Below the pieces are notes generated by a model, which was not told the origin of the DNA, ran no database searches, and saw nothing but the letters and a program-made list of their open reading frames with translations. From IMG/VR virus record IMGVR_UViG_2896601577_000004: a stretch of DNA of 11,947 nt. One strand, 5' to 3'. The stretch is from a virus. Lineage: Duplodnaviria > Heunggongvirae > Uroviricota > Caudoviricetes. A program made the position numbers and the translations under genes. Shown one piece after another: positions 934 through 11,947 of this stretch (positions within the stretch are counted from its first letter, which is position 1; the number at the start of each line of letters is the position of its first letter).

Positions 934-3526
<2,593 letters not shown>

Positions 3527-3598
3527 TGGAGCACCTGTGTTGTTCTGAGGTGAGCATATCACCTCTGTTCAGGTGGCCAAATTCAGTGTGCCACTTCA

Positions 3599-3659
<61 letters not shown>

Positions 3660-3662
3660 ATA

Positions 3663-3738
<76 letters not shown>

Positions 3739-3740
3739 GC

Positions 3741-3817
3741 TGGCCCACCACCGAGGACTCGAACCTCGCACCGTCAACTTAGAAGGTTGATGCTCTATCC
3801 GGATGAGCTAGTGGTGG
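3741..3817 (-). tRNA. tRNA-Arg (anticodon UCU, reads AGA), 77 nt, CCA encoded; unusual C1:G72 acceptor pair
   Basis: Minus-strand CCACCACTAGCTCATCCGGATAGAGCATCAACCTTCTAAGTTGACGGTGCGAGGTTCGAGTCCTCGGTGGTGGGCCA folds into a full cloverleaf (D stem GCTC/GAGC, anticodon stem TCAAC/GTTGA, T stem CGAGG/CCTCG). Confidence 0.7.
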
Positions 3818-3818
3818 T

Positions 3819-3895
3819 TGGTGGCCCTTGCTGGACTTGAACCAGCGACCTGGCGATTATGAGTCGCTCGCTCTGACCAACTGAGCTAAAGGGCC
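3819..3895 (-). tRNA. tRNA with CAU anticodon, most similar to tRNA-Ile2 (lysidine type, reads AUA) but tRNA-Met cannot be excluded; 77 nt, CCA encoded
   Basis: Minus-strand GGCCCTTTAGCTCAGTTGGTCAGAGCGAGCGACTCATAATCGCCAGGTCGCTGGTTCAAGTCCAGCAAGGGCCACCA resembles recalled E. coli ileX; one A-C mismatch at the top of the anticodon stem. Confidence 0.65.
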
Positions 3896-3983
3896 GGAGG
3901 CAGAATAATAACCATATGTCATCACATCTGCAAACTCATCTGACCACCAGCACGTTTAACGTCCTGTGCCGTTTTTCAGGTAT

Positions 3984-4008
3984 AAAAAAACCCGCATAAA
4001 GCGGGCTC
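3984..4008 (-). terminator. Rho-independent terminator between the Q-like gene and the tRNA array; candidate tR'-type terminator of a lambdoid late operon
   Basis: Minus strand reads AAAGAGCCCGC-TTTAT-GCGGG-TTTTTTT: a GC-rich 5-bp stem (extendable), 5-nt loop and 7-U tract. Confidence 0.55.
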
Positions 4009-4084
4009 TTTCAAATGTCCATGTCTGCTATTCGCCTCGCGGTACAGCTTTGCGAAGCGTACAAGAATTGAAGCAGTTTTTACG

Positions 4085-4507
4085 TCAAAAAGCAATAACT
4101 TTTTTCTCTATACCAAAAGCCATAACCATTGGTTTGTACAAAATAAATTCTGCCACCTTTAGCCAATGCTCAATGCGTCTTTCACAGGTTCTTAAACTCC
4201 ATTTCGGGTGTGCATCATTCAGCAGTTCAGCCATTTTGCGTTTGGTCATCCCCCGCCCCTCATACCGTTGCCGAAGGACGCTAATCAATCCTGGATGCTC
4301 TGCCAGCACCTCACTTATGACCCGATCAATACATAACGCCTCTGCATCAGTACAATGCGCCAGCCAGCTCTTTTGCTTACCGTTAATCATATCCCGCAAA
4401 AAAGCCTCAAGTTCAGACTTGTTCAGACCTGCTTTTTTCATCCTCCGGAGCGCCTCGTTAATTGCCGTTTTTGTCAGCTTTTTAGAGGCCAACAACTGGT
4501 TGAACAT
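4085..4507 (-). CDS. Putative phage late-gene antiterminator Q-like protein (about 140 aa from the ATG at 4507); the longer 193-aa frame back to 4666 starts with TTG inside the IS600 inverted repeat and is probably artefactual
   Basis: Position is Q-like: downstream of nin-region genes and immediately upstream of a terminator plus tRNA array. Loose similarity to recalled 933W/DLP12-type Q (QuuD) around ...HCTDAEALCIDRV...GMT...; no search run. Confidence 0.4.
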   Translation of the reverse strand: MFNQLLASKKLTKTAINEALRRMKKAGLNKSELEAFLRDMINGKQKSWLAHCTDAEALCIDRVISEVLAEHPGLISVLRQRYEGRGMTKRKMAELLNDAHPKWSLRTCERRIEHWLKVAEFILYKPMVMAFGIEKKVIAF

Positions 4508-4638
4508 ATTCCCCGTCTTACCGCCGCCAATATACGACCAGCGCCCCACATGCGCAGTTTTCCCTGAATCCAGACACTTTCCAGCGTGGTGAGACGAAGG
4601 TGTTCCCCGCTTTTGCCTGTATTTGTTGGGTAAATCAT
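4474..4638 (-). CDS. Small hypothetical ORF (54 aa, MIYPTNTGKSGEHLRL...) translationally coupled to the ybcO-like gene in the pre-IS600 sequence
   Basis: Its ATG overlaps the reconstructed ybcO-like stop (TTATGA) and is preceded by AAGGAAGG once IS600 is removed in silico; no recognisable family, W-rich composition. Confidence 0.25.
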   Translation of the reverse strand: MIYPTNTGKSGEHLRLTTLESVWIQGKLRMWGAGRILAAVRRGICSTSCWPLKS

Positions 4639-4693
4639 AAATAACCTTCCTGAGGTGTACTGGCAATAGCGGACACTACCATTTGTTCTTTTT

Positions 4694-5512
4694 TTAAGCA
4701 GCCATCTGATGATATTTTTCCCTGAAGGCTGCCGGGGAGATATTCCCCAGACGAGAGTGACGACGCTGACGATTGTAGAAAATCTCAATGTATTCCCGTA
4801 TTACTGAGATGGCTTCATCCCGGTTATTAAAACGATAGTGGCTCAGGCTCTCATTTTTCAGCGTTCCCCAGAAGCTTTCCATCGGAGCGTTGTCGTAACA
4901 CTGACCTTTACGCGACATTGATGTTTTCAGACCAGACTGCTCCTGTATGACCCGGTAATCGTATGCGCAGTACTGTGAACCTCGATCAGAGTGGTGGATT
5001 AGCCCGGCAGGTGGGCGCTGGCTCCTGAGCGCCATAAACAGGGCTTTACCTGTCAGCTCTTTTGTCATGCGCTCTCCCATGGCGTAGCCGACAATTTCGC
5101 ACGTATAAACATCTTTGATGCCAGCGAGGTACAACCATCCCTCCTGTGTGGCAACATACGTCAGGTCCGCCACCCAGACCTGATTTGGTGCTGTAGGAGC
5201 GAACGTCTGGTTCAGCAGATTTGGCGCAACTGGCAGATTGTGGTTCGGGTTCGTAGTCGCTCTGAACTTGCGTTTCTGCTTACAGCGTAGCCTTAGCTCC
5301 TTACGAAGACGTGCCAGTCGGTCACGACCAACGATGATGCCATTCTCTGCCAGCTCCGTCTGGAGCCGCCGGGTTCCATATGTTTCGCGAGTGCGGATAT
5401 GTGCCACCTTAATCTCCAGTTTTAGCCGCTCATCACTTTGTTTTCTGTCTGAGGGTTCATGCTGTACCCAGTTGTAATAACCGCTCCTGGATACACCAAA
5501 TACCTGACACAT
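4694..5512 (-). CDS. IS600 transposase OrfB (DDE domain)
   Basis: 272-aa ORF of IS3-family OrfB type, recalled as IS600 OrfB. Confidence 0.9.
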   Translation of the reverse strand: MCQVFGVSRSGYYNWVQHEPSDRKQSDERLKLEIKVAHIRTRETYGTRRLQTELAENGIIVGRDRLARLRKELRLRCKQKRKFRATTNPNHNLPVAPNLLNQTFAPTAPNQVWVADLTYVATQEGWLYLAGIKDVYTCEIVGYAMGERMTKELTGKALFMALRSQRPPAGLIHHSDRGSQYCAYDYRVIQEQSGLKTSMSRKGQCYDNAPMESFWGTLKNESLSHYRFNNRDEAISVIREYIEIFYNRQRRHSRLGNISPAAFREKYHQMAA

Positions 5513-5547
5513 CGCTTCAATGGGAAATTGTTGTCGCCATTGTTCGA

Positions 5548-5850
5548 TTAACGCGTATTTTTCAGCGACTCCTGTGCAAAATACGCTGTTGCTTTTTTTA
5601 ATATATCTCGCTCAAGGCGAGCTTCATTTAACGCCTTACGCAGTTGCAGAATTTCAGATTCCAGTTCAGCCACCGTGCGGGAACCAGGAGTACCGAGCCC
5701 TTTTCTGGCGGCGGTAACCCATTGTCCTAAAGTGCCTTCAGGAAGGGATAATCGGGAAGCGCCTTCACTGATCGAAAGTTGATTTTCAAGAACCGTTCTG
5801 ACAGCTTCGGCTTTGAACTCTTTAGAGTAACGTTGGTTTTTTCTGCTCAT
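5548..5850 (-). CDS. IS600 OrfA (helix-turn-helix regulatory protein, 100 aa)
   Basis: MSRKNQRYSKEFKAEAVRTVLENQLSISEGASRL... recalled as IS600 OrfA; an A-rich slippery run lies at its 3' end. Confidence 0.9.
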   Translation of the reverse strand: MSRKNQRYSKEFKAEAVRTVLENQLSISEGASRLSLPEGTLGQWVTAARKGLGTPGSRTVAELESEILQLRKALNEARLERDILKKATAYFAQESLKNTR

Positions 5851-5914
5851 TATTAGCTCCTTCTGATGCCATTCTATTTCAGGAAGGAGTGTCCGTTAAA
5901 CTCAGGCTACCTAA

Positions 5915-6759: not shown

Positions 6760-7033
6760 GATTGTAGATGAGTTTATTCTTCAGCAAAAGCAGAAAACCA
6801 GCCTTAAAACCAATCTCTTTCAAAACCCGTAATGATGTGACAAATTCGTCCTCACGCAAAATAAAACCGTCCGTCAGAAGTCCATTACAAAAATAAAATA
6901 ACACAGCACCGCTCTTCCTTTGTTGAGATTGCAAACATCTAATGCGGCAATGGCTGACAATCGCTCCATTCTCAACGCGCACAGCATAGAGGCCATTTTC
7001 ACTAAAAATTTCACGCAATTCTTCGATTTTCAT
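6746..7033 (-). CDS. Hypothetical small prophage protein (95 aa), first gene of a coupled operon
   Basis: ATG at 7033 preceded by GGAAGGA at suitable spacing; 14-nt overlap with the next gene; a sigma70-like promoter lies just upstream. Confidence 0.5.
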   Translation of the reverse strand: MKIEELREIFSENGLYAVRVENGAIVSHCRIRCLQSQQRKSGAVLFYFCNGLLTDGFILREDEFVTSLRVLKEIGFKAGFLLLLKNKLIYNLEQD

Positions 7034-7114
7034 CTTCAGAATCCTTCCAGATAAATAGCTCTCCCCTGTTCGGGGTCCATCCCTCTTCTCCCTGCGCGCT
7101 ACTTAAGTGAGTCG

Positions 7115-7282: not shown

Positions 7283-7438
7283 TTACTTCCTGGATTCGTA
7301 GTCTACGAAGACAGCGACCTCCGTCTGGCCGGTTCGGATTCGTACCTCACAGAGGTCTTTCCTCGTTACCAGTGCCGTCACTATGACGGTTAAACAGATG
7401 ACGATCAGGGCGATTAACATCGCCTTTTGCTGCTTCAT
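7283..7438 (-). CDS. hok: Hok-family type I toxin (51 aa small membrane peptide, HokD/RelF-like)
   Basis: MKQQKAMLIALIVICLTVIVTALVTRKDLCEVRIRTGQTEVAVF... is near-identical to recalled HokD over the first ~44 residues, with the typical single transmembrane helix. Confidence 0.8.
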   Translation of the reverse strand: MKQQKAMLIALIVICLTVIVTALVTRKDLCEVRIRTGQTEVAVFVDYESRK

Positions 7439-7495
7439 AGCCTGCTTCTCCTTGCCTTTCGGCATGTAAGAGGCTAACCTACATGTGCAAAGCAT
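7283..7495 (-). CDS. mok: Mok (modulator of killing) reading frame, same frame and stop as hok with a 19-codon N-terminal extension
   Basis: ATG at 7495 opens a 70-aa frame co-terminal with hok, the arrangement known for mokC/hokC-type loci. Confidence 0.55.
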   Translation of the reverse strand: MLCTCRLASYMPKGKEKQAMKQQKAMLIALIVICLTVIVTALVTRKDLCEVRIRTGQTEVAVFVDYESRK

Positions 7496-7665
7496 GAAAT
7501 TGGCCTCAGATTAATGTTAAGCGTCTTGCCGGACGCGTAATGTTAACTGGGGCTTTTCTCTATCTGCCTTTTAGTGTTCATGCCTGAAGCAGATAGCCTC
7601 AAGCACCCGCAGTCATTCTACTTACCTCGCCAATATGAAATCAATCAGAAAGGTGCCCCATAAAA

Positions 7666-8352: not shown

Positions 8353-8499
8353 AAAAATATCAAAGAGTGTAGCATTAGAACGGGGCTATCGGAAACAGAT
8401 GTGTGACTGCTCCCCGCCCTTTCGGGCTGAAGTGGCACACTGAATTTGGCCACCTGAACAGAGGTGATATGCTCACCTCAGAACAACACAGGTGCTCCA

Positions 8500-9397
<898 letters not shown>

Positions 9398-9439: not shown

Positions 9440-10330
9440 TCAGGCTGCCAGATCATCGTTTCCGATGGAAGCATAATAAGCTTTTTCTGCTTCTGCCGGA
9501 GGAGTATGGCCCAGCCTTTCCAGCAATCGTCGATTATTATACCAGTCCACCCACGTGAGTGTGGCCAGTTCCACTTCTGCACGGTTTTTCCAGCTCTTAC
9601 GGTGTATTACCTCCGCTTTGTAAAGACCATTGATGCTCTCCGCCATCGCGTTGTCATACGAGTCGCCTGTACTTCCTGTTGATGCCAGTAATCCGGCTTC
9701 CTTAAGCCGCTGTGTGTAGGCCAGCGATACATACTGAGAACCTTTATCACTGTGATGGACTGTGCCGGACGGTCGACGGGCCCATAACGCCTGCTCCAGA
9801 GCATCCAGCACGAATGTCGTTTCCATGGACGATGAGACCCGCCACCCCACGATGTATCCGGCAAACACATCAATGATGAACGCCACATAGACGAAGCCCT
9901 GCCATGTGCTGACGTAAGTAAAATCAGCCACCCACAGCTGGTCAGGTCGTTCTGCCACGAACTGACGGTTTACGCGGTCGCCTGCGGCAACGGCTTTCCG
10001 GCTGATGGTCGTACGGACCTTTTTACCCCGGAGAACACCGGCAAGTCCCATAACCGCCATGAGACGTGCCACAGTGCATCTGGCCACTCTGATACCTTCC
10101 CGTAACAACTGACGCCAGACTTTACGCACACCGTATACCTGATGATTCCCATCGTATACGCGCAGTATCTCTTTCTTCAGCCAGTCATCGCGCTGCGCAC
10201 GGGCACTGCGTTTATCAGGATGATGTCGCTGTTGCTGACAGTGGTAATACGTTGACGGGGCAATATGCAGTTCACTGCATACCGGTCCGACCCCGTACAG
10301 CTTACGCAGCTTATCCAGCAGTGGCATCAC
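9440..10330 (-). CDS. IS629 transposase OrfB (DDE domain, 296 aa)
   Basis: IS3-family OrfB with a 4-nt overlap with OrfA; recalled as IS629 OrfB. Confidence 0.9.
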
Positions 10331-10653
10331 TTTTTCCAGAGGCGGTCGAACTCCGCCTTCGCAAAATAAGCGGAAGCCTGGCGAAGGATATCGTTACTGC
10401 GGCGCAGTTCACGATTTTCACGCTCCAGCTCTTTCAGACGCTGACGTTCAGCGGTGGTGAGCCCTCCATCACCGCCCCCGGTATCCCGCTCATGCTGGCG
10501 AACCCAGACACGCAGAGTCTCCGGCGTACAGCCAATCTTTGGAGCAATGGAACAAATTGTCGCCCATTGTGAGTCATATTCGCCCTGACTTTCCAGAACC
10601 ATACGGACTGCCCGTTGACGGACTTCGGGGGAAAAACGAGTATTTTTAGTCAT
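10327..10653 (-). CDS. IS629 OrfA (108 aa, helix-turn-helix)
   Basis: [50 protein letters not shown]... recalled as IS629 OrfA. Confidence 0.9.
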
Positions 10654-10707
10654 CCTGTTTACCTCTTTCTCAGGGAGTTTAGTCTCCAGGATTCCCGGGG
10701 CGGTTCA

Positions 10708-11102
10708 ATGGGAAATTGTTGTCGCCATTGTTCGATTAACGCGTATTTTTCAGCGACTCCTGTGCAAAATACGCTGTTGCTTTTTTTAATATATCTCGCT
10801 CAAGGCGAGCTTCATTTAACGCCTTACGCAGTTGCAGAATTTCAGATTCCAGTTCAGCCACCGTGCGGGAACCAGGAGTACCGAGCCCTTTTCTGGCGGC
10901 GGTAACCCATTGTCCTAAAGTGCCTTCAGGAAGGGATAATCGGGAAGCGCCTTCACTGATCGAAAGTTGATTTTCAAGAACCGTTCTGACAGCTTCGGCT
11001 TTGAACTCTTTAGAGTAACGTTGGTTTTTTCTGCTCATTATTAGCTCCTTCTGATGCCATTCTATTTCAGGAAGGAGTGTCCGTTAAACTCAGGCTACCT
11101 CA
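10708..11102 (-). mobile_element. IS600, second copy, truncated: only the left ~395 bp (orfA end) remain, abutting IS629
   Basis: Sequence identical to 5518..5912 of copy 1; terminus ...CTCAGGCTACCTCA at 11102; the IS629/IS600 junction falls within the 4-bp microhomology TTCA (10704..10707). Confidence 0.9.
10736..11038 (-). CDS. IS600 OrfA (copy 2)
   Basis: Identical protein to copy 1 OrfA. Confidence 0.9.
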   Translation of the reverse strand: MSRKNQRYSKEFKAEAVRTVLENQLSISEGASRLSLPEGTLGQWVTAARKGLGTPGSRTVAELESEILQLRKALNEARLERDILKKATAYFAQESLKNTR

Positions 11103-11947
11103 ATCTTAAACTACCGGAATGAACTGCTGCATGGAGAAACGCTTTACCTAGATAATCCAAGATCCAACAAAAAAGGAAGAATCGTGCGCACAGTTGATAA
11201 CTATATCGCCCTGCTCTGTTCGTTGTTACGTTTTGCGTATCAGTCGGGATTTATATCAACCAAACCATTTGAAGGAGTAAAAAAATTACAGCGAAACAGA
11301 ATAAAACCTGACCCGTTATCTAAAACAGAATTCAATGCATTAATGGAAAGTGAAAAAGGACAGAGCCAAAACTTGTGGAAATTTGCCGTTTACTCCGGGC
11401 TTCGTCACGGGGAACTGGCAGCTCTGGCGTGGGAGGATGTGGATTTCGAGAAGGGAATTGTGAATGTCAGAAGAAACCTGACGATACTTGATATGTTCGG
11501 TCCCCAAAAACAAATGCCGGGATCCGGACGGTAACATTACTGCAGCCGGCTCTTGAAGCACTGAAGGAGCAATACAAACTGACCGGGCATCATCGCAAAA
11601 GCGAAATCACTTTTTATCATCGGGAGTACGGCAGAACTGAAAAGCAAAAACTGCATTTTGTTTTCATGCCCAGGGTGTGTAACGAAAAACAGAAACCTTA
11701 TTACTCGGTAAGCAGTTTGGGTGCAAGATGGAATGCAGCAGTAAAACGTGCTGGTATTCGCCGCCGTAATCCGTACCATACGCGACATACTTTTGCCTGC
11801 TGGCTGTTGACGGCAGGAGCGAACCCGGCATTTATAGCCAGCCAGATGGGGCATGAAACTGCGCAAATGGTGTATGAAATTTACGGTATGTGGATTGATG
11901 ACATGAACGACGAACAGATAGCCATGTTGAATGCGCGGTTATCGTAG
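11103..11947 (+). pseudogene. Phage-type tyrosine integrase/recombinase, 5'-truncated by IS600 and frameshifted near 11506..11512; the C-terminal catalytic domain is intact in the second frame and ends at the TAG at 11945..11947
   Basis: Frame A is open from the IS600 junction to 11534 (...NLTILDMFGP QKQMPGSGR stop). Frame C from about 11507 encodes ...PKTNAGIRTVTLLQPALEAL...HTRHTFACWLLTAGANPAFIASQMGHETAQMVYEIYG..., a typical integrase C-terminal region with the conserved R/H and Y residues; the switch falls in a CCCC-AAAAA run. Confidence 0.8.

Follow-up and report, generated by a model that had tools for sequence, protein, structure and literature searches.

A DUF1133-type, Q21-related antiterminator pseudogene in a probable, now broken late-gene antitermination cassette of a lambdoid prophage

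Gene content and organization of the locus

The analysed DNA (hereafter the window) is an 11,947-nt stretch of a virus of the class Caudoviricetes (IMG/VR record IMGVR_UViG_2896601577_000004). The following genes and insertion sequence (IS) elements surround a Q-like gene on its minus strand:

4651–5914, minus strand: IS600, 1264 bp, a simple insertion with a GGA target duplication (BLAST against the uninterrupted relative L001; transposase domains)
4085–4638, minus strand: gene of a DUF1133/Q21-superfamily antiterminator, a pseudogene in the window copy; one added G restores a 184-aa protein
4544–4547, minus strand: run of four G, five in intact relatives (alignment with EIEC CFSAN029787 and an O121 strain)
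4085–4507, minus strand: ORF of a 140-aa C-terminal fragment from ATG 4507, in frame, without the N-terminal 44 residues
3905–3934, minus strand: the tRNA cluster's own promoter, TTTGCA-18-TATTAT (promoter scan), aligning with the annotated 'pT' of 933W
3663–3895, minus strand: three tRNA genes, i.e. ileZ-type tRNA-Ile2 (CAU), tRNA-Arg (UCU) and tRNA-Thr (UGU)
3599–3650, minus strand: fourth tRNA gene, cut by IS911; tRNA-Val in intact relatives (partial Rfam match at 3596–3650, model positions 10–63)
2351–3598, minus strand: IS911, in the place of the holin, the lysis genes and the late genes; shares 99.6% identity with the IS911 annotated in a second relative, L002

In intact relatives the gene order is DUF1367, DUF1364, DUF1133, terminator and tRNAs, followed by holin, lysozyme, Rz or toxin genes (in Rac-SA53, for example, Q is followed by eplB/eplA, a pertussis-like toxin operon). 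The window retains the upstream neighbours of the Q gene, while the lysis genes are gone. IS600 lies 10 bp upstream of the Q start, within the 3' end of the ybcO/DUF1364 gene. On the other side, IS911 joins the cut fourth tRNA to a chromosomal 6-phospho-beta-glucosidase gene, and the match between the window and L001 ends at L001 position 7054, within its tRNA-Val (6994–7064). The CAU tRNA was called Met by ARAGORN; its counterpart in L001 is annotated as tRNA-Ile by PGAP, and the stretch is similar to ileZ of 933W. Decay is heavy in the prophage around these genes, which contains IS2, IS911, IS600, incomplete IS copies and a truncated tRNA. The original prediction placed tRNAs and any cargo beyond a terminator that follows the Q-like gene. 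The tRNAs are indeed there, but they have their own promoter and do not need read-through, and IS911 occupies the place of any cargo.

Reading frame of the Q-like gene

The ambiguous layout of open frames noted earlier is present: a 193-aa ORF (4085–4666, minus strand) has its TTG start at 4666 within the IS600 terminal repeat, ATG 4507 lies in frame with it, and a 54-aa ORF in another frame runs from ATG 4638 to a stop at 4476–4474 (minus strand). The true start is ATG 4638 on the minus strand, as every 184-aa relative starts at the corresponding ATG. At 4547–4544 the coding sequence is one base short of intact: the missing base shifts the frame after Trp31-Gly32, within the conserved MWGRWSY motif, so that the 184-aa gene falls into two pieces of 54 and 140 aa. 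Loss of one G from this run makes the window copy a pseudogene, unless the G count reflects an error in sequencing the homopolymer. Given the start at 4638 and the lost G, the 140-aa frame is a truncated piece and not a Q of the size of that of 933W, as had been proposed. The fragment lacks an invariant block (W23, G26, W31, G32 and W34) that includes the N-terminal WGRW helix. Programmed frameshifting was also considered and rejected; it requires a +1 shift at the G4 run, where there is no known signal.

The DUF1133 family and its relation to phage 21 Q

The repaired 184-aa protein matches the DUF1133 profile (PF06576) over profile positions 1–176 with 362 bits (E = 4e-109, above the gathering score), and the 193-aa ORF of the window matches it over positions 26–176 with 291 bits. 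The repaired protein also matches PHROG 753, 'anti-termination protein Q-like'. The Q-family profiles suggested for checking the gene gave a divided answer: PF06530 (Q21/Q933W) is passed after repair, with 29.3 bits against a cut-off of 26 (25.6 bits for the 193-aa ORF), whereas lambda Q (PF03589) and phage 82 Q (PF06323) show no Pfam match to the window protein at E ≤ 0.01. A search of NCBIfam with the window protein gave no match. Lambda Q and phage 82 Q are unrelated protein families (bioRxiv 10.1101/651190).

More sensitive comparisons point to phage 21 Q. The DUF1133 profile has a sole match in the PDB, phage 21 Q (E = 4e-8), the next one being at 0.3; hhalign aligns residues 14–181 to 6–155 of Q21-type proteins with 97.5% probability (E = 6e-12); and in the reciprocal check the Q21-type Q of ST64T clears the DUF1133 cut-off (34.4 bits vs 23.1). 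Judged from sequence, the window gene is thus a member of DUF1133, with distant homology to phage 21 Q, whose structure has been solved. This bears out the description of the gene as Q-like, and in intact relatives it occupies the Q position. A hit to a non-Q family, which the original prediction had named as evidence against itself, exists in name only: DUF1133 is labelled as of 'unknown function' in Pfam and named 'DUF1133 family protein' by the NCBI annotation pipeline, yet profile comparison places it with confidence as a branch of the Q21/Q933W family. In a library of clusters at 50% identity, the DUF1133 family is narrow and has few full-length distant members, and a structure prediction from a 14-sequence alignment (pLDDT 54) is too poor for use.

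Homology with Q21 (PDB 6P18 and 6JNX; PF06530) extends over almost the whole length, although the two are only about 25–30% identical. They share (i) an N-terminal WGxW helix, with Q21 W23 and W26 aligned to the invariant W31 and W34 of DUF1133; (ii) a C-x-D-x-[DE] motif; (iii) an S/T-K pair in the first helix of the helix-turn-helix, with Q21 S93-K94 aligned to [ST]132-K133; and (iv) a T-C-x-x-R recognition helix, with Q21 T125-C126-R128 aligned to T151-C152-R154. In Q21, W26 is a contact to the beta' dock, and helix H1, which contacts the beta' dock, is required for antitermination (PMC6606751). DUF1133 differs from Q21 by ∼29 extra residues after the WGRWSY motif, where Q21 forms the exit-channel nozzle, and by the absence of most of the long minor-groove loop (R113) of HT[loop]H, because a 12-residue hhalign gap in DUF1133 lies opposite Q21-type residues ∼112–123. 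The insertion in the nozzle region and the missing loop suggest that the mechanism of DUF1133 may differ from that of Q21.

Late promoter and candidate pause and Q-binding elements

The end of the Q gene and the DNA beyond it carry the following elements:

4090–4095, minus strand: −35 element TTGCTT of a pR'-like late promoter, in the last codons of the Q gene
4082–4087, minus strand: candidate Q-binding element TGACGT, overlapping the TGA stop and a TTGACG hexamer, and co-varying with the recognition helix
4067–4075, minus strand: extended −10 element TGc-TTCAAT, 17 bp after the −35
4056–4061, minus strand: candidate sigma-dependent pause element TACGCT, −10-like, at about −1 to +5, with the invariant form TAnGCT
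3984–4060, minus strand: predicted leader RNA, short (about 77 nt) and terminated, starting near A4060 (±2 nt) as judged from the −10
4033–4059, minus strand: 5' hairpin of the leader, +2 to +9 paired with +21 to +28 (−12.7 kcal/mol, z = −2.8)
4006–3984, minus strand: core of a tR'-like intrinsic terminator (4013–3983 with flanking A-U pairs), GCCCGC-UUUAU-GCGGGU followed by U7

The promoter was found by comparing about 120 related loci, and the column counts below come from 27 unique aligned sequences. The TTG of the −35 is invariant while its neighbouring positions vary; in the extended −10, T−15 is kept in 26/27 sequences and G−14, T−12, T−11, A−9, A−8 and T−7 in all 27. The invariant columns of the alignment are exactly the promoter positions and TAnGCT. 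The promoter is convincing because related loci were compared; taken by itself, the window has 7/12 consensus positions plus the TG, which is indistinguishable from chance. The earlier remark that no convincing −10 could be seen thus holds for the window, whose promoter scan does not list this promoter, but not for the related loci, which show an extended −10. The TTGACG hexamer (4088–4083) does overlap the TGA stop (4087–4085), as originally described, but its suggested role as a −35 is rejected: it is not conserved (relatives have TTTGCC or TTTACG), it has no usable −10 16–18 bp on, and the conserved −35 TTGCTT lies 7 bp upstream of it. Working promoters rarely have T in place of A at −11, as TTCAAT does, and TAnGCT could be the true −10.

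In TAnGCT, the T, A, G, C and T are present in 27/27 sequences, with free variation at −2 and +2. Two Q21-type phages, ST64T and PhiR12_2, have TAAGCT or TATGCT at the same offset, and TACGCT of the window is likely a sigma-dependent pause element. The start of a class-specific hexamer lies upstream of TAnGCT at a distance of exactly 26 bp in 48 unique sequences, an offset equal to that in ST64T and PhiR12_2, and each recognition-helix class has its own hexamer class. For example, the TC-RR helix goes with TGAGC[AC], much as Q21 (ATCRRE) binds TGAGCA, using two DNA subsites (PMC6606751). TGACGT is therefore a likely candidate for the Q-binding site of the window. As in Q21, the candidate binding hexamer of DUF1133 loci lies between the −35 and −10, and a −10-like element lies at the transcript start. 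In contrast to the two direct repeats 8 bp apart of Q21, DUF1133 loci have one class-specific subsite: the second-subsite position holds a constant AA[AC][CG]TG, part of the extended −10, and only the upstream hexamer is class-specific. The association of helix and hexamer classes could partly reflect physical linkage, because the recognition helix and the hexamer are ∼100 bp apart in the same gene end.

Terminator and predicted leader RNA

The strong terminator predicted within ∼80 nt of the stop codon is present, its stem starting 72–79 nt past the stop, and is kept in nearly all related loci. Folding of 4100–3970 gives a total of −38 kcal/mol (z = −2.95) with the terminator as the last hairpin. 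A simple terminator scanner run on the window did not report the site at 4006–3984, we think because the extension of the stem by the A/U run consumes the T tail. The terminator is not a chance feature: among 43 non-redundant related loci, the top-scoring hairpin with a T-run falls 40–90 nt after the −10 in 34, with differing stems, and in most of the other nine a nearer terminator can be seen by eye. The resemblance to a pR'/tR' unit is thus upheld, with promoter, short leader and terminator arranged as in 933W.

Single-sequence folds place a 5' hairpin in every leader type, significant in two types only, and RNAalifold on 21 leaders found no consensus structure across the leader types. No Rfam family matches the window leader at gathering level. 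The isrK model aligns with it end to end (4058–3985), the 5' hairpin of the leader with that of isrK, but scores 19.9 bits where 50 are needed at gathering level; the leader is therefore not a member of the IsrK family. A weak match to Trp_leader (23.1 bits vs 41) was dismissed as merely a hairpin plus terminator.

Comparison with 933W, Gifsy-1 and other Q systems

Phage 933W has the same layout as the window, i.e. a promoter over the Q stop, a terminator within tens of nucleotides, a separate tRNA promoter and an ileZ-type cluster, and the window spacer ACGTAAAAACTGC is similar to TCGTAAAAATCTGC of 933W. The Q subfamily is different, as the 933W Q matches PF06530 only. Compared with the 933W order (Q, pR', qut, terminator, pT, ileZ/argN/argO, stx2), the third tRNA of the window is Thr and not argO, and the downstream toxin/lysis cassette is missing, removed by IS911. 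Lambda Q and phage 82 Q share the genome position and the promoter–pause–terminator logic, with no sequence match. As to whether the Q type of the window is the 'qO111:H-' gene of Stx phages, the Stx2a phage listed for that gene, LC567841, is not among the best 60 of 74 phage matches.

A second comparison concerns the Salmonella sRNA IsrK. The isrK promoter gives a short terminated RNA with partial read-through, and AntQ is toxic to cells, which are rescued by Rho (PMC4825925); this published evidence bears on antitermination by AntQ indirectly. Matches to the Rfam isrK family (RF01394) begin 33 nt past the DUF1133 stop in Salmonella and E. coli loci. Because of this position, we infer that AntQ of Gifsy-1 belongs to DUF1133 and that its pR'-like promoter gives rise to IsrK as a terminated leader. 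The window leader is like IsrK in position, length (74–77 nt), 5' hairpin and terminator, but lacks the second hairpin. The IsrK-type loci also have another spacer (TTATCC), no TAnGCT and, in the downstream position of the tRNAs, a C4/antirepressor module.

Proposed mechanism and alternative explanations

Taken together, these results make it probable that the window contains the broken remains of a cassette for late-gene antitermination in a lambdoid prophage. The homology, the frameshift, the IS boundaries and the conservation and fixed spacing of the DNA elements are seen directly in the sequences, whereas binding, pausing and antitermination are deductions. In intact relatives, the 184-aa DUF1133 protein would be made from the early rightward operon. 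The 3' end of its own gene would bear a sigma-70 promoter (TTGnnn, a 16–17 bp spacer and an extended −10), from which polymerase would initiate, only for sigma to hold it at TAnGCT, at about −1 to +5. During this pause, the helix-turn-helix of the protein would recognize its specific hexamer at the fixed distance of 26 bp upstream of the pause. If it acts as Q21 does, the protein may then load on the polymerase, so that the terminator ∼55 nt further on is ignored and read-through reaches the tRNAs, lysis genes and late genes. Without the protein, the unit would yield only the ∼77-nt terminated RNA. In the window, the parts left intact are the promoter, leader and terminator and the three tRNA genes with their own promoter. 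The switch itself looks dead because the gene is frameshifted, IS600 cuts off transcription from upstream and IS911 has replaced the late genes.

Two alternatives concern the state of the gene. That the G was lost in sequencing or assembly, leaving a functional Q without late genes to control, is unlikely, although the frameshift depends on a single homopolymer base. One base in the G run is the sole difference in this stretch from an EIEC locus that is 99.6–99.9% identical, and two database proteins (P0075 and P0157) are disturbed in frame in the same region, which suggests error-prone calls; a real inactivating mutation, however, would fit the heavy decay of the prophage described above. That the 140-aa ORF from ATG 4507 is a working short Q, of the size of 933W Q, is hardly credible. 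The ORF is open, has GGGGA just upstream of its ATG and is predicted by gene callers in other assemblies, on contigs under 1 kb that do not extend to the G run, and it retains the helix-turn-helix, the region contained in the 193-aa ORF that scores 25.6 bits on PF06530. But the 184-aa relatives start at the equivalent of 4638, and the profile is covered from 1 to 176 only after the G is restored. The fragment also lacks the W23–W34 block, which aligns with Q21 helix H1 (PMC6606751), and the late genes for it to act on are gone as well.

Two others concern the DNA elements and the function of the family. TAnGCT could be the real −10, often after TGn, with the RNA starting ∼12 nt further downstream and about 65 nt long. 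It has the canonical T−12, A−11 and T−7 missing from TTCAAT, and a TG precedes it in most loci (T in 20/27, G in 24/27). Yet the 27 unique sequences have no −35 at the right distance upstream of it, and four further groups of loci (Serratia, Yersinia, Rouxiella and Edaphovirga) have a near-consensus promoter upstream (TTGACT/TTGACA-16-TAAATT/TAGATT, TATGAT, TAGGAT or TAAGAT), which TAAGCT or TAAGAT still follows. Similarly, TTGACA-18-CATAAT lies ahead of TAAGCT or TATGCT in ST64T and PhiR12_2, and in IsrK-type loci the Rfam match begins 7 nt past TATATT; we thus give this reading a small chance and prefer TAnGCT as a pause element. It is very unlikely, in turn, that DUF1133 proteins are activators or repressors of the downstream promoter that resemble sigma region 4, the terminated RNA being an independent sRNA like IsrK. 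The Q21 fold is similar to sigma region 4 (bioRxiv 10.1101/651190), a trans-acting role is documented for IsrK (PMC4825925), and the nozzle regions of Q21 are not conserved in DUF1133. Against this, nearly all loci retain a strong terminator after the promoter and ahead of the lysis, toxin or late genes, an arrangement that demands an antiterminator; the fixed 26-bp spacing from hexamer to −10-like element marks a Q loading site and not an activator site; and Rho relieves AntQ toxicity (PMC4825925).

Implications

The window itself matters little, being an ordinary kind of element with a dead switch in an IS-riddled prophage remnant; it is best annotated as a pseudogene of the Q family with pR'/tR' and tRNA genes after it. 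Comparing related loci is more useful. This places DUF1133 in the Q21/Q933W family and links two literatures, as the position of IsrK suggests that such a Q cassette produces it as a terminated leader. It also yields explicit testable predictions, i.e. the promoter, the pause element, the Q-binding site and the pairing of helix residues with DNA hexamers. DUF1133 may even be a distinct Q21 offshoot with a single subsite 26 bp upstream of the pause, an enlarged exit-channel module, a recognition code and IsrK-like sRNA leaders, the promoter, leader and terminator of the window possibly forming an orphan sRNA gene; we hold this broader reading only tentatively and consider it rather doubtful. 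If true, the code would be a simple one, pairing the hexamer with the residues that follow T-C in the recognition helix, and the leaders, each with a 5' hairpin, would be sRNAs with roles of their own. Thirteen Stx phages with a DUF1133 Q have been reported (PMC8136144), and since a DUF1133-type Q lies upstream of toxin genes in some phages, these predictions bear on the control of toxin expression.

A frameshifted Q-like gene

The original prediction placed a Q-like antiterminator gene of ambiguous start, together with a terminator close behind it, at 3984–4666, and its three open reading frames are all present on the minus strand where it had put them:

4666–4085, minus strand: 193-aa ORF, TTG start at 4666 and stop codon at 4085
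From ATG 4507, minus strand: 140-aa ORF, in frame with the 193-aa ORF
4638–4474, minus strand: 54-aa ORF with start ATG 4638 and a stop codon at 4476–4474, in a different frame

As had also been proposed, the 193-aa frame starts within IS600 (TTG 4666 versus IS600 at 4651–5914). Alignment with two uninterrupted relatives (EIEC CFSAN029787, 99.6–99.9% identical, and an O121 strain, 87.5% identical) reveals a one-base difference: the G5 run in ATG-TGG-GGG-CGC of the relatives is a G4 run in the window (4547–4544). With this G restored, codons 1–32 of the 54-aa ORF run on into the 193-aa frame to give a 184-aa protein from ATG 4638, which matches the entire PF06576 (DUF1133) profile (positions 1–176, E = 4e-109); the unrepaired ORF matches profile positions 26–176 only. 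That the full profile is matched only after repair argues that the three candidate starts are fragments of a single frameshifted gene. The ORFs behind the ambiguous start are thus real, but the alignment and the PF06576 match place the start at ATG 4638, and the 140-aa piece is rejected as a short, 933W-sized Q, being a fragment of the 184-aa gene. The frameshift breaks the MWG|RWSY motif, leaving no complete protein in either fragment. As a single base in a homopolymer, the missing G may reflect a sequencing error; contigs encoding the 140-aa ORF are too short to reach the G run, so the frameshift cannot be checked on them.

Two database DUF1133 proteins (P0075 and P0157) are out of frame over the same KLRMWGRWSY...NMF stretch; P0075 is back in frame by about 'QLL' and P0157 later, at about 'GKITKT', before a second divergence downstream. 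The G-rich stretch thus seems liable to indels or base-calling errors. In S. flexneri SFBU1023 (L012/L013) and E. coli ECMA0423 (L048/L049), the same gene is broken otherwise, by IS911 after about residue 32–38, and its halves now occupy distant chromosomal positions; the terminator of these loci has GCGGT in place of GCGGG.

Relationship of DUF1133 to phage 21 Q

Three Q families are described in the literature: Q21/Q933W (PF06530), lambda Q and Q82 (bioRxiv 10.1101/651190). The protein has no match in NCBIfam, while PHROG 753 labels its family 'anti-termination protein Q-like', and 'DUF1133 (Q antiterminator HHPred)' was already noted for 13 Stx phages (PMC8136144). In a single-sequence search, phage 21 Q is the top PDB match (E = 3.6e-4; its N- and C-terminal matches are collinear), improving to E = 4e-8 (next match 0.3) with a 14-sequence DUF1133 profile. 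Hhalign aligns residues 14–181 of DUF1133 with 6–155 of a small Q21-type alignment (ST64T, PhiR12_2 and 933W) at 97.5% probability and E = 6e-12. In the reverse direction, ST64T Q scores 34.4 bits on DUF1133 (gathering score 23.1) and also passes PF06530. These comparisons indicate that DUF1133 is a remote branch of the Q21/Q933W family.

Functional Q21 residues (PMC6606751) are conserved: W23 and W26, the latter a beta' dock contact (PMC6606751), correspond to the invariant W31 and W34 of DUF1133, S93-K94 to [ST]132-K133, and the recognition helix T125-C126-R128 to T151-C152-R154. In contrast to Q21, DUF1133 has ~29 additional residues at the site of the exit-channel 'nozzle' and is without the long helix-turn[loop]-helix loop. 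An AlphaFold model from a shallow alignment (pLDDT 54) was too poor for use.

Promoter, candidate pause element and candidate Q-binding hexamer

We gathered 44 related loci from species genomes, 80 from viral contigs and several annotated phages, of which 27 unique sequences with a 17-bp spacer were registered on the -10. The comparison points to the following elements in the window:

4095–4090, minus strand: -35 element, TTGCTT
4075–4067, minus strand: extended -10 element, TGc-TTCAAT, after a 17-bp spacer
4061–4056, minus strand: second invariant block, TAnGCT (TACGCT), a -10-like hexamer that keeps the key T, A and T
4087–4082, minus strand: TGACGT, candidate Q-binding site

Among these 27, TTG at -35 to -33, T-27, G-14, T-12, T-11, A-9, A-8, T-7, T-1, A+1, G+3, C+4 and T+5 are invariant and T-15 occurs in 26, while the columns beside them vary freely. 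The transcript is predicted to start near A4060. The assignment is weakened by the window's -10, which lacks the usual A at -11; it is supported by near-consensus promoters at the same place in Serratia, Yersinia, Rouxiella and Edaphovirga (TTGACT/TTGACA-16 bp-TAAATT/TAGATT, TATGAT, TAGGAT or TAAGAT) and by IsrK-type loci, where the Rfam match starts 7 nt past the -10. TTGACG (4088–4083), which the original prediction had flagged as a possible -35, does overlap the TGA stop codon, but it is unconserved among related loci and lacks a usable -10 downstream, and is rejected in favour of the TTGCTT / TGc-TTCAAT pair.

Lambdoid late promoters carry a sigma-dependent pause element at the very start of the transcript, and we infer that TAnGCT is a candidate for such an element. 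In two Q21-type phages, TAAGCT (ST64T) or TATGCT (PhiR12_2) follows the -10 by 7 nt. In all 48 unique sequences carrying TAnGCT, exactly 26 bp upstream lies a T-initial hexamer whose sequence varies with the residues after T-C in the recognition helix.

Recognition-helix residues and upstream hexamer in DUF1133 loci
TC-RR: TGAGC[AC], TGAACC or TGAACA
TC-E[STN]: TTGCGC
TC-EK: TTACG[CT]
TC-ER (the window's own): TGACG[TC]
K-TC-RN: TTGCCA
TC-QR: TGACAT or TGACCG

This pairing suggests more than mere linkage because a given hexamer class accompanies several leader types and -10 elements at three offsets, one leader is common to four hexamer classes in E. coli, Q21 (helix ATCRRE) itself binds TGAGCA (PMC6606751), and in ST64T and PhiR12_2 (helix ATCRNE) an upstream TTATCC or TTAGCC starts 26 bp before TAnGCT (counted by hand). 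With a Q21 subsite starting at -25, a pause element spanning +2 to +7 would be expected, with pausing at +14, where it has been reported. Only one class-specific subsite is visible; at the position of Q21's second subsite, DUF1133 loci have constant sequence belonging to the extended -10. The flagged TTGACG, which TGACGT overlaps together with the stop codon, is more likely a Q-binding site. In phage Rac-SA53 (L003), the candidate pause element is TAAGAT, again 26 bp after TTACGC.

Terminator and short RNA

The strong terminator of the original prediction is present:

4006–3984 (core; 4013–3983 with flanking A-U pairs), minus strand: GCCCGC-UUUAU-GCGGGU followed by seven U

It is the last hairpin in the fold of 4100–3970 (total energy -38 kcal/mol, z = -2.95). 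A simple terminator scanner did not list the site, we think because extension of the stem into the A/U runs consumes the T tail. The predicted transcript, from ~4060 to the U-tract at 3984–3986, is about 75–77 nt long.

In one Salmonella and one E. coli locus, Rfam isrK is matched at gathering level, starting 33 nt past the DUF1133 stop codon. In Gifsy-1, isrK lies directly downstream of the Q-like antQ, its promoter gives a short Rho-independent-terminated RNA and a read-through transcript, and AntQ over-expression is toxic, with rescue by Rho or RNase H (PMC4825925). By position, AntQ would be a DUF1133 protein, with IsrK as the terminated leader of its Q cassette. The window's leader aligns end to end with the isrK model, sharing the 5' hairpin and terminator, but at 19.9 bits falls below the gathering score of 50 and is thus a different leader type. 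A 5' hairpin starting near +3 appears in folds of every leader type; RNAalifold found no consensus structure over them.

In IsrK-type loci (L007, 3575–3776; L011, 290–476 and 3588–3768), the isrK match that directly adjoins the DUF1133 gene shares sequence with a match to 'a1,b1 target of C4', and a match to C4 antisense RNA comes next, as in the P1/P7 immI (c4-icd-ant) region; L011 has two isrK-C4 copies, ~3.3 kb apart. Some relatives (L027 and L030) carry tandem intrinsic terminators after the leader, ~50–115 nt past the -10: AACCCGCC...GCGGGTTTTTT, then GGCTGCC...GGCGGCCTTTTTT.

Surroundings and decay of the cassette

The cassette lies between two insertion sequences:

4651–5914: IS600, 1264 bp, a simple insertion with a GGA duplication on both sides
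3934–3905, minus strand: tRNA promoter TTTGCA-18-TATTAT, from a promoter scan
3596–3650, minus strand: fourth tRNA (tRNA-Val in intact relatives), cut by the IS911 end at 3598/3599
2351–3598, minus strand: IS911, 99.6% identical to an annotated copy

IS600 sits 10 bp upstream of ATG 4638, within the last codons of the ybcO/DUF1364 gene. Upstream of the Q gene are a ybcO fragment, DUF1367 and hok/sok, typical nin-region content. Three tRNA genes follow the terminator; from the annotation of L001 (an uninterrupted related locus) and 933W, the one called Met(CAT) by ARAGORN is a tRNA-Ile of ileZ type. The promoter at 3934–3905 aligns with 'pT', annotated as the tRNA promoter in 933W, so the tRNAs are independent of pR' read-through. 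On the far side of IS911 is a chromosomal 6-phospho-beta-glucosidase gene. The same tRNAs precede holin, lysozyme and Rz in intact relatives, and in Rac-SA53 (3537–4462) the DUF1133 Q cassette lies directly upstream of the pertussis-like toxin operon eplB/eplA, with holins after; the late region has therefore been lost from the window.

The predicted arrangement, with a pR'/tR'-like unit after a Q-like gene, was right in kind and matches the annotated layout of 933W; its details shift, in that the gene, as judged from its sequence, is a frameshifted DUF1133/Q21-superfamily pseudogene and the promoter uses another hexamer pair. The cassette has nothing left to control and, within this decayed prophage, is of an ordinary kind. 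The comparison itself yields useful leads: DUF1133 as a probable Q21 relative, IsrK as a putative Q-cassette leader and a candidate helix-to-hexamer code with a fixed 26-bp geometry.

The early/nin region also encodes a 228-aa homologue of QueH (epoxyqueuosine reductase, PF02677; 7666–8352, minus strand), a tRNA-modification gene in the same phage as tRNA genes. The hok/sok module (7283–7608, minus strand) comprises a Hok/Gef ORF (7283–7495) and a sok RNA match (7433–7608, 116 bits). The window is dense in insertion sequences, as is typical of Shigella and EIEC genomes, with IS2, a second partial IS911, an IS3-family element (ALIL frameshift pseudoknot at 10256–10372), a partial IS600 and a phage integrase fragment; the IS-rich stretches are:

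1–917
8428–9397
9440–10653
10701–11102
11184–11534
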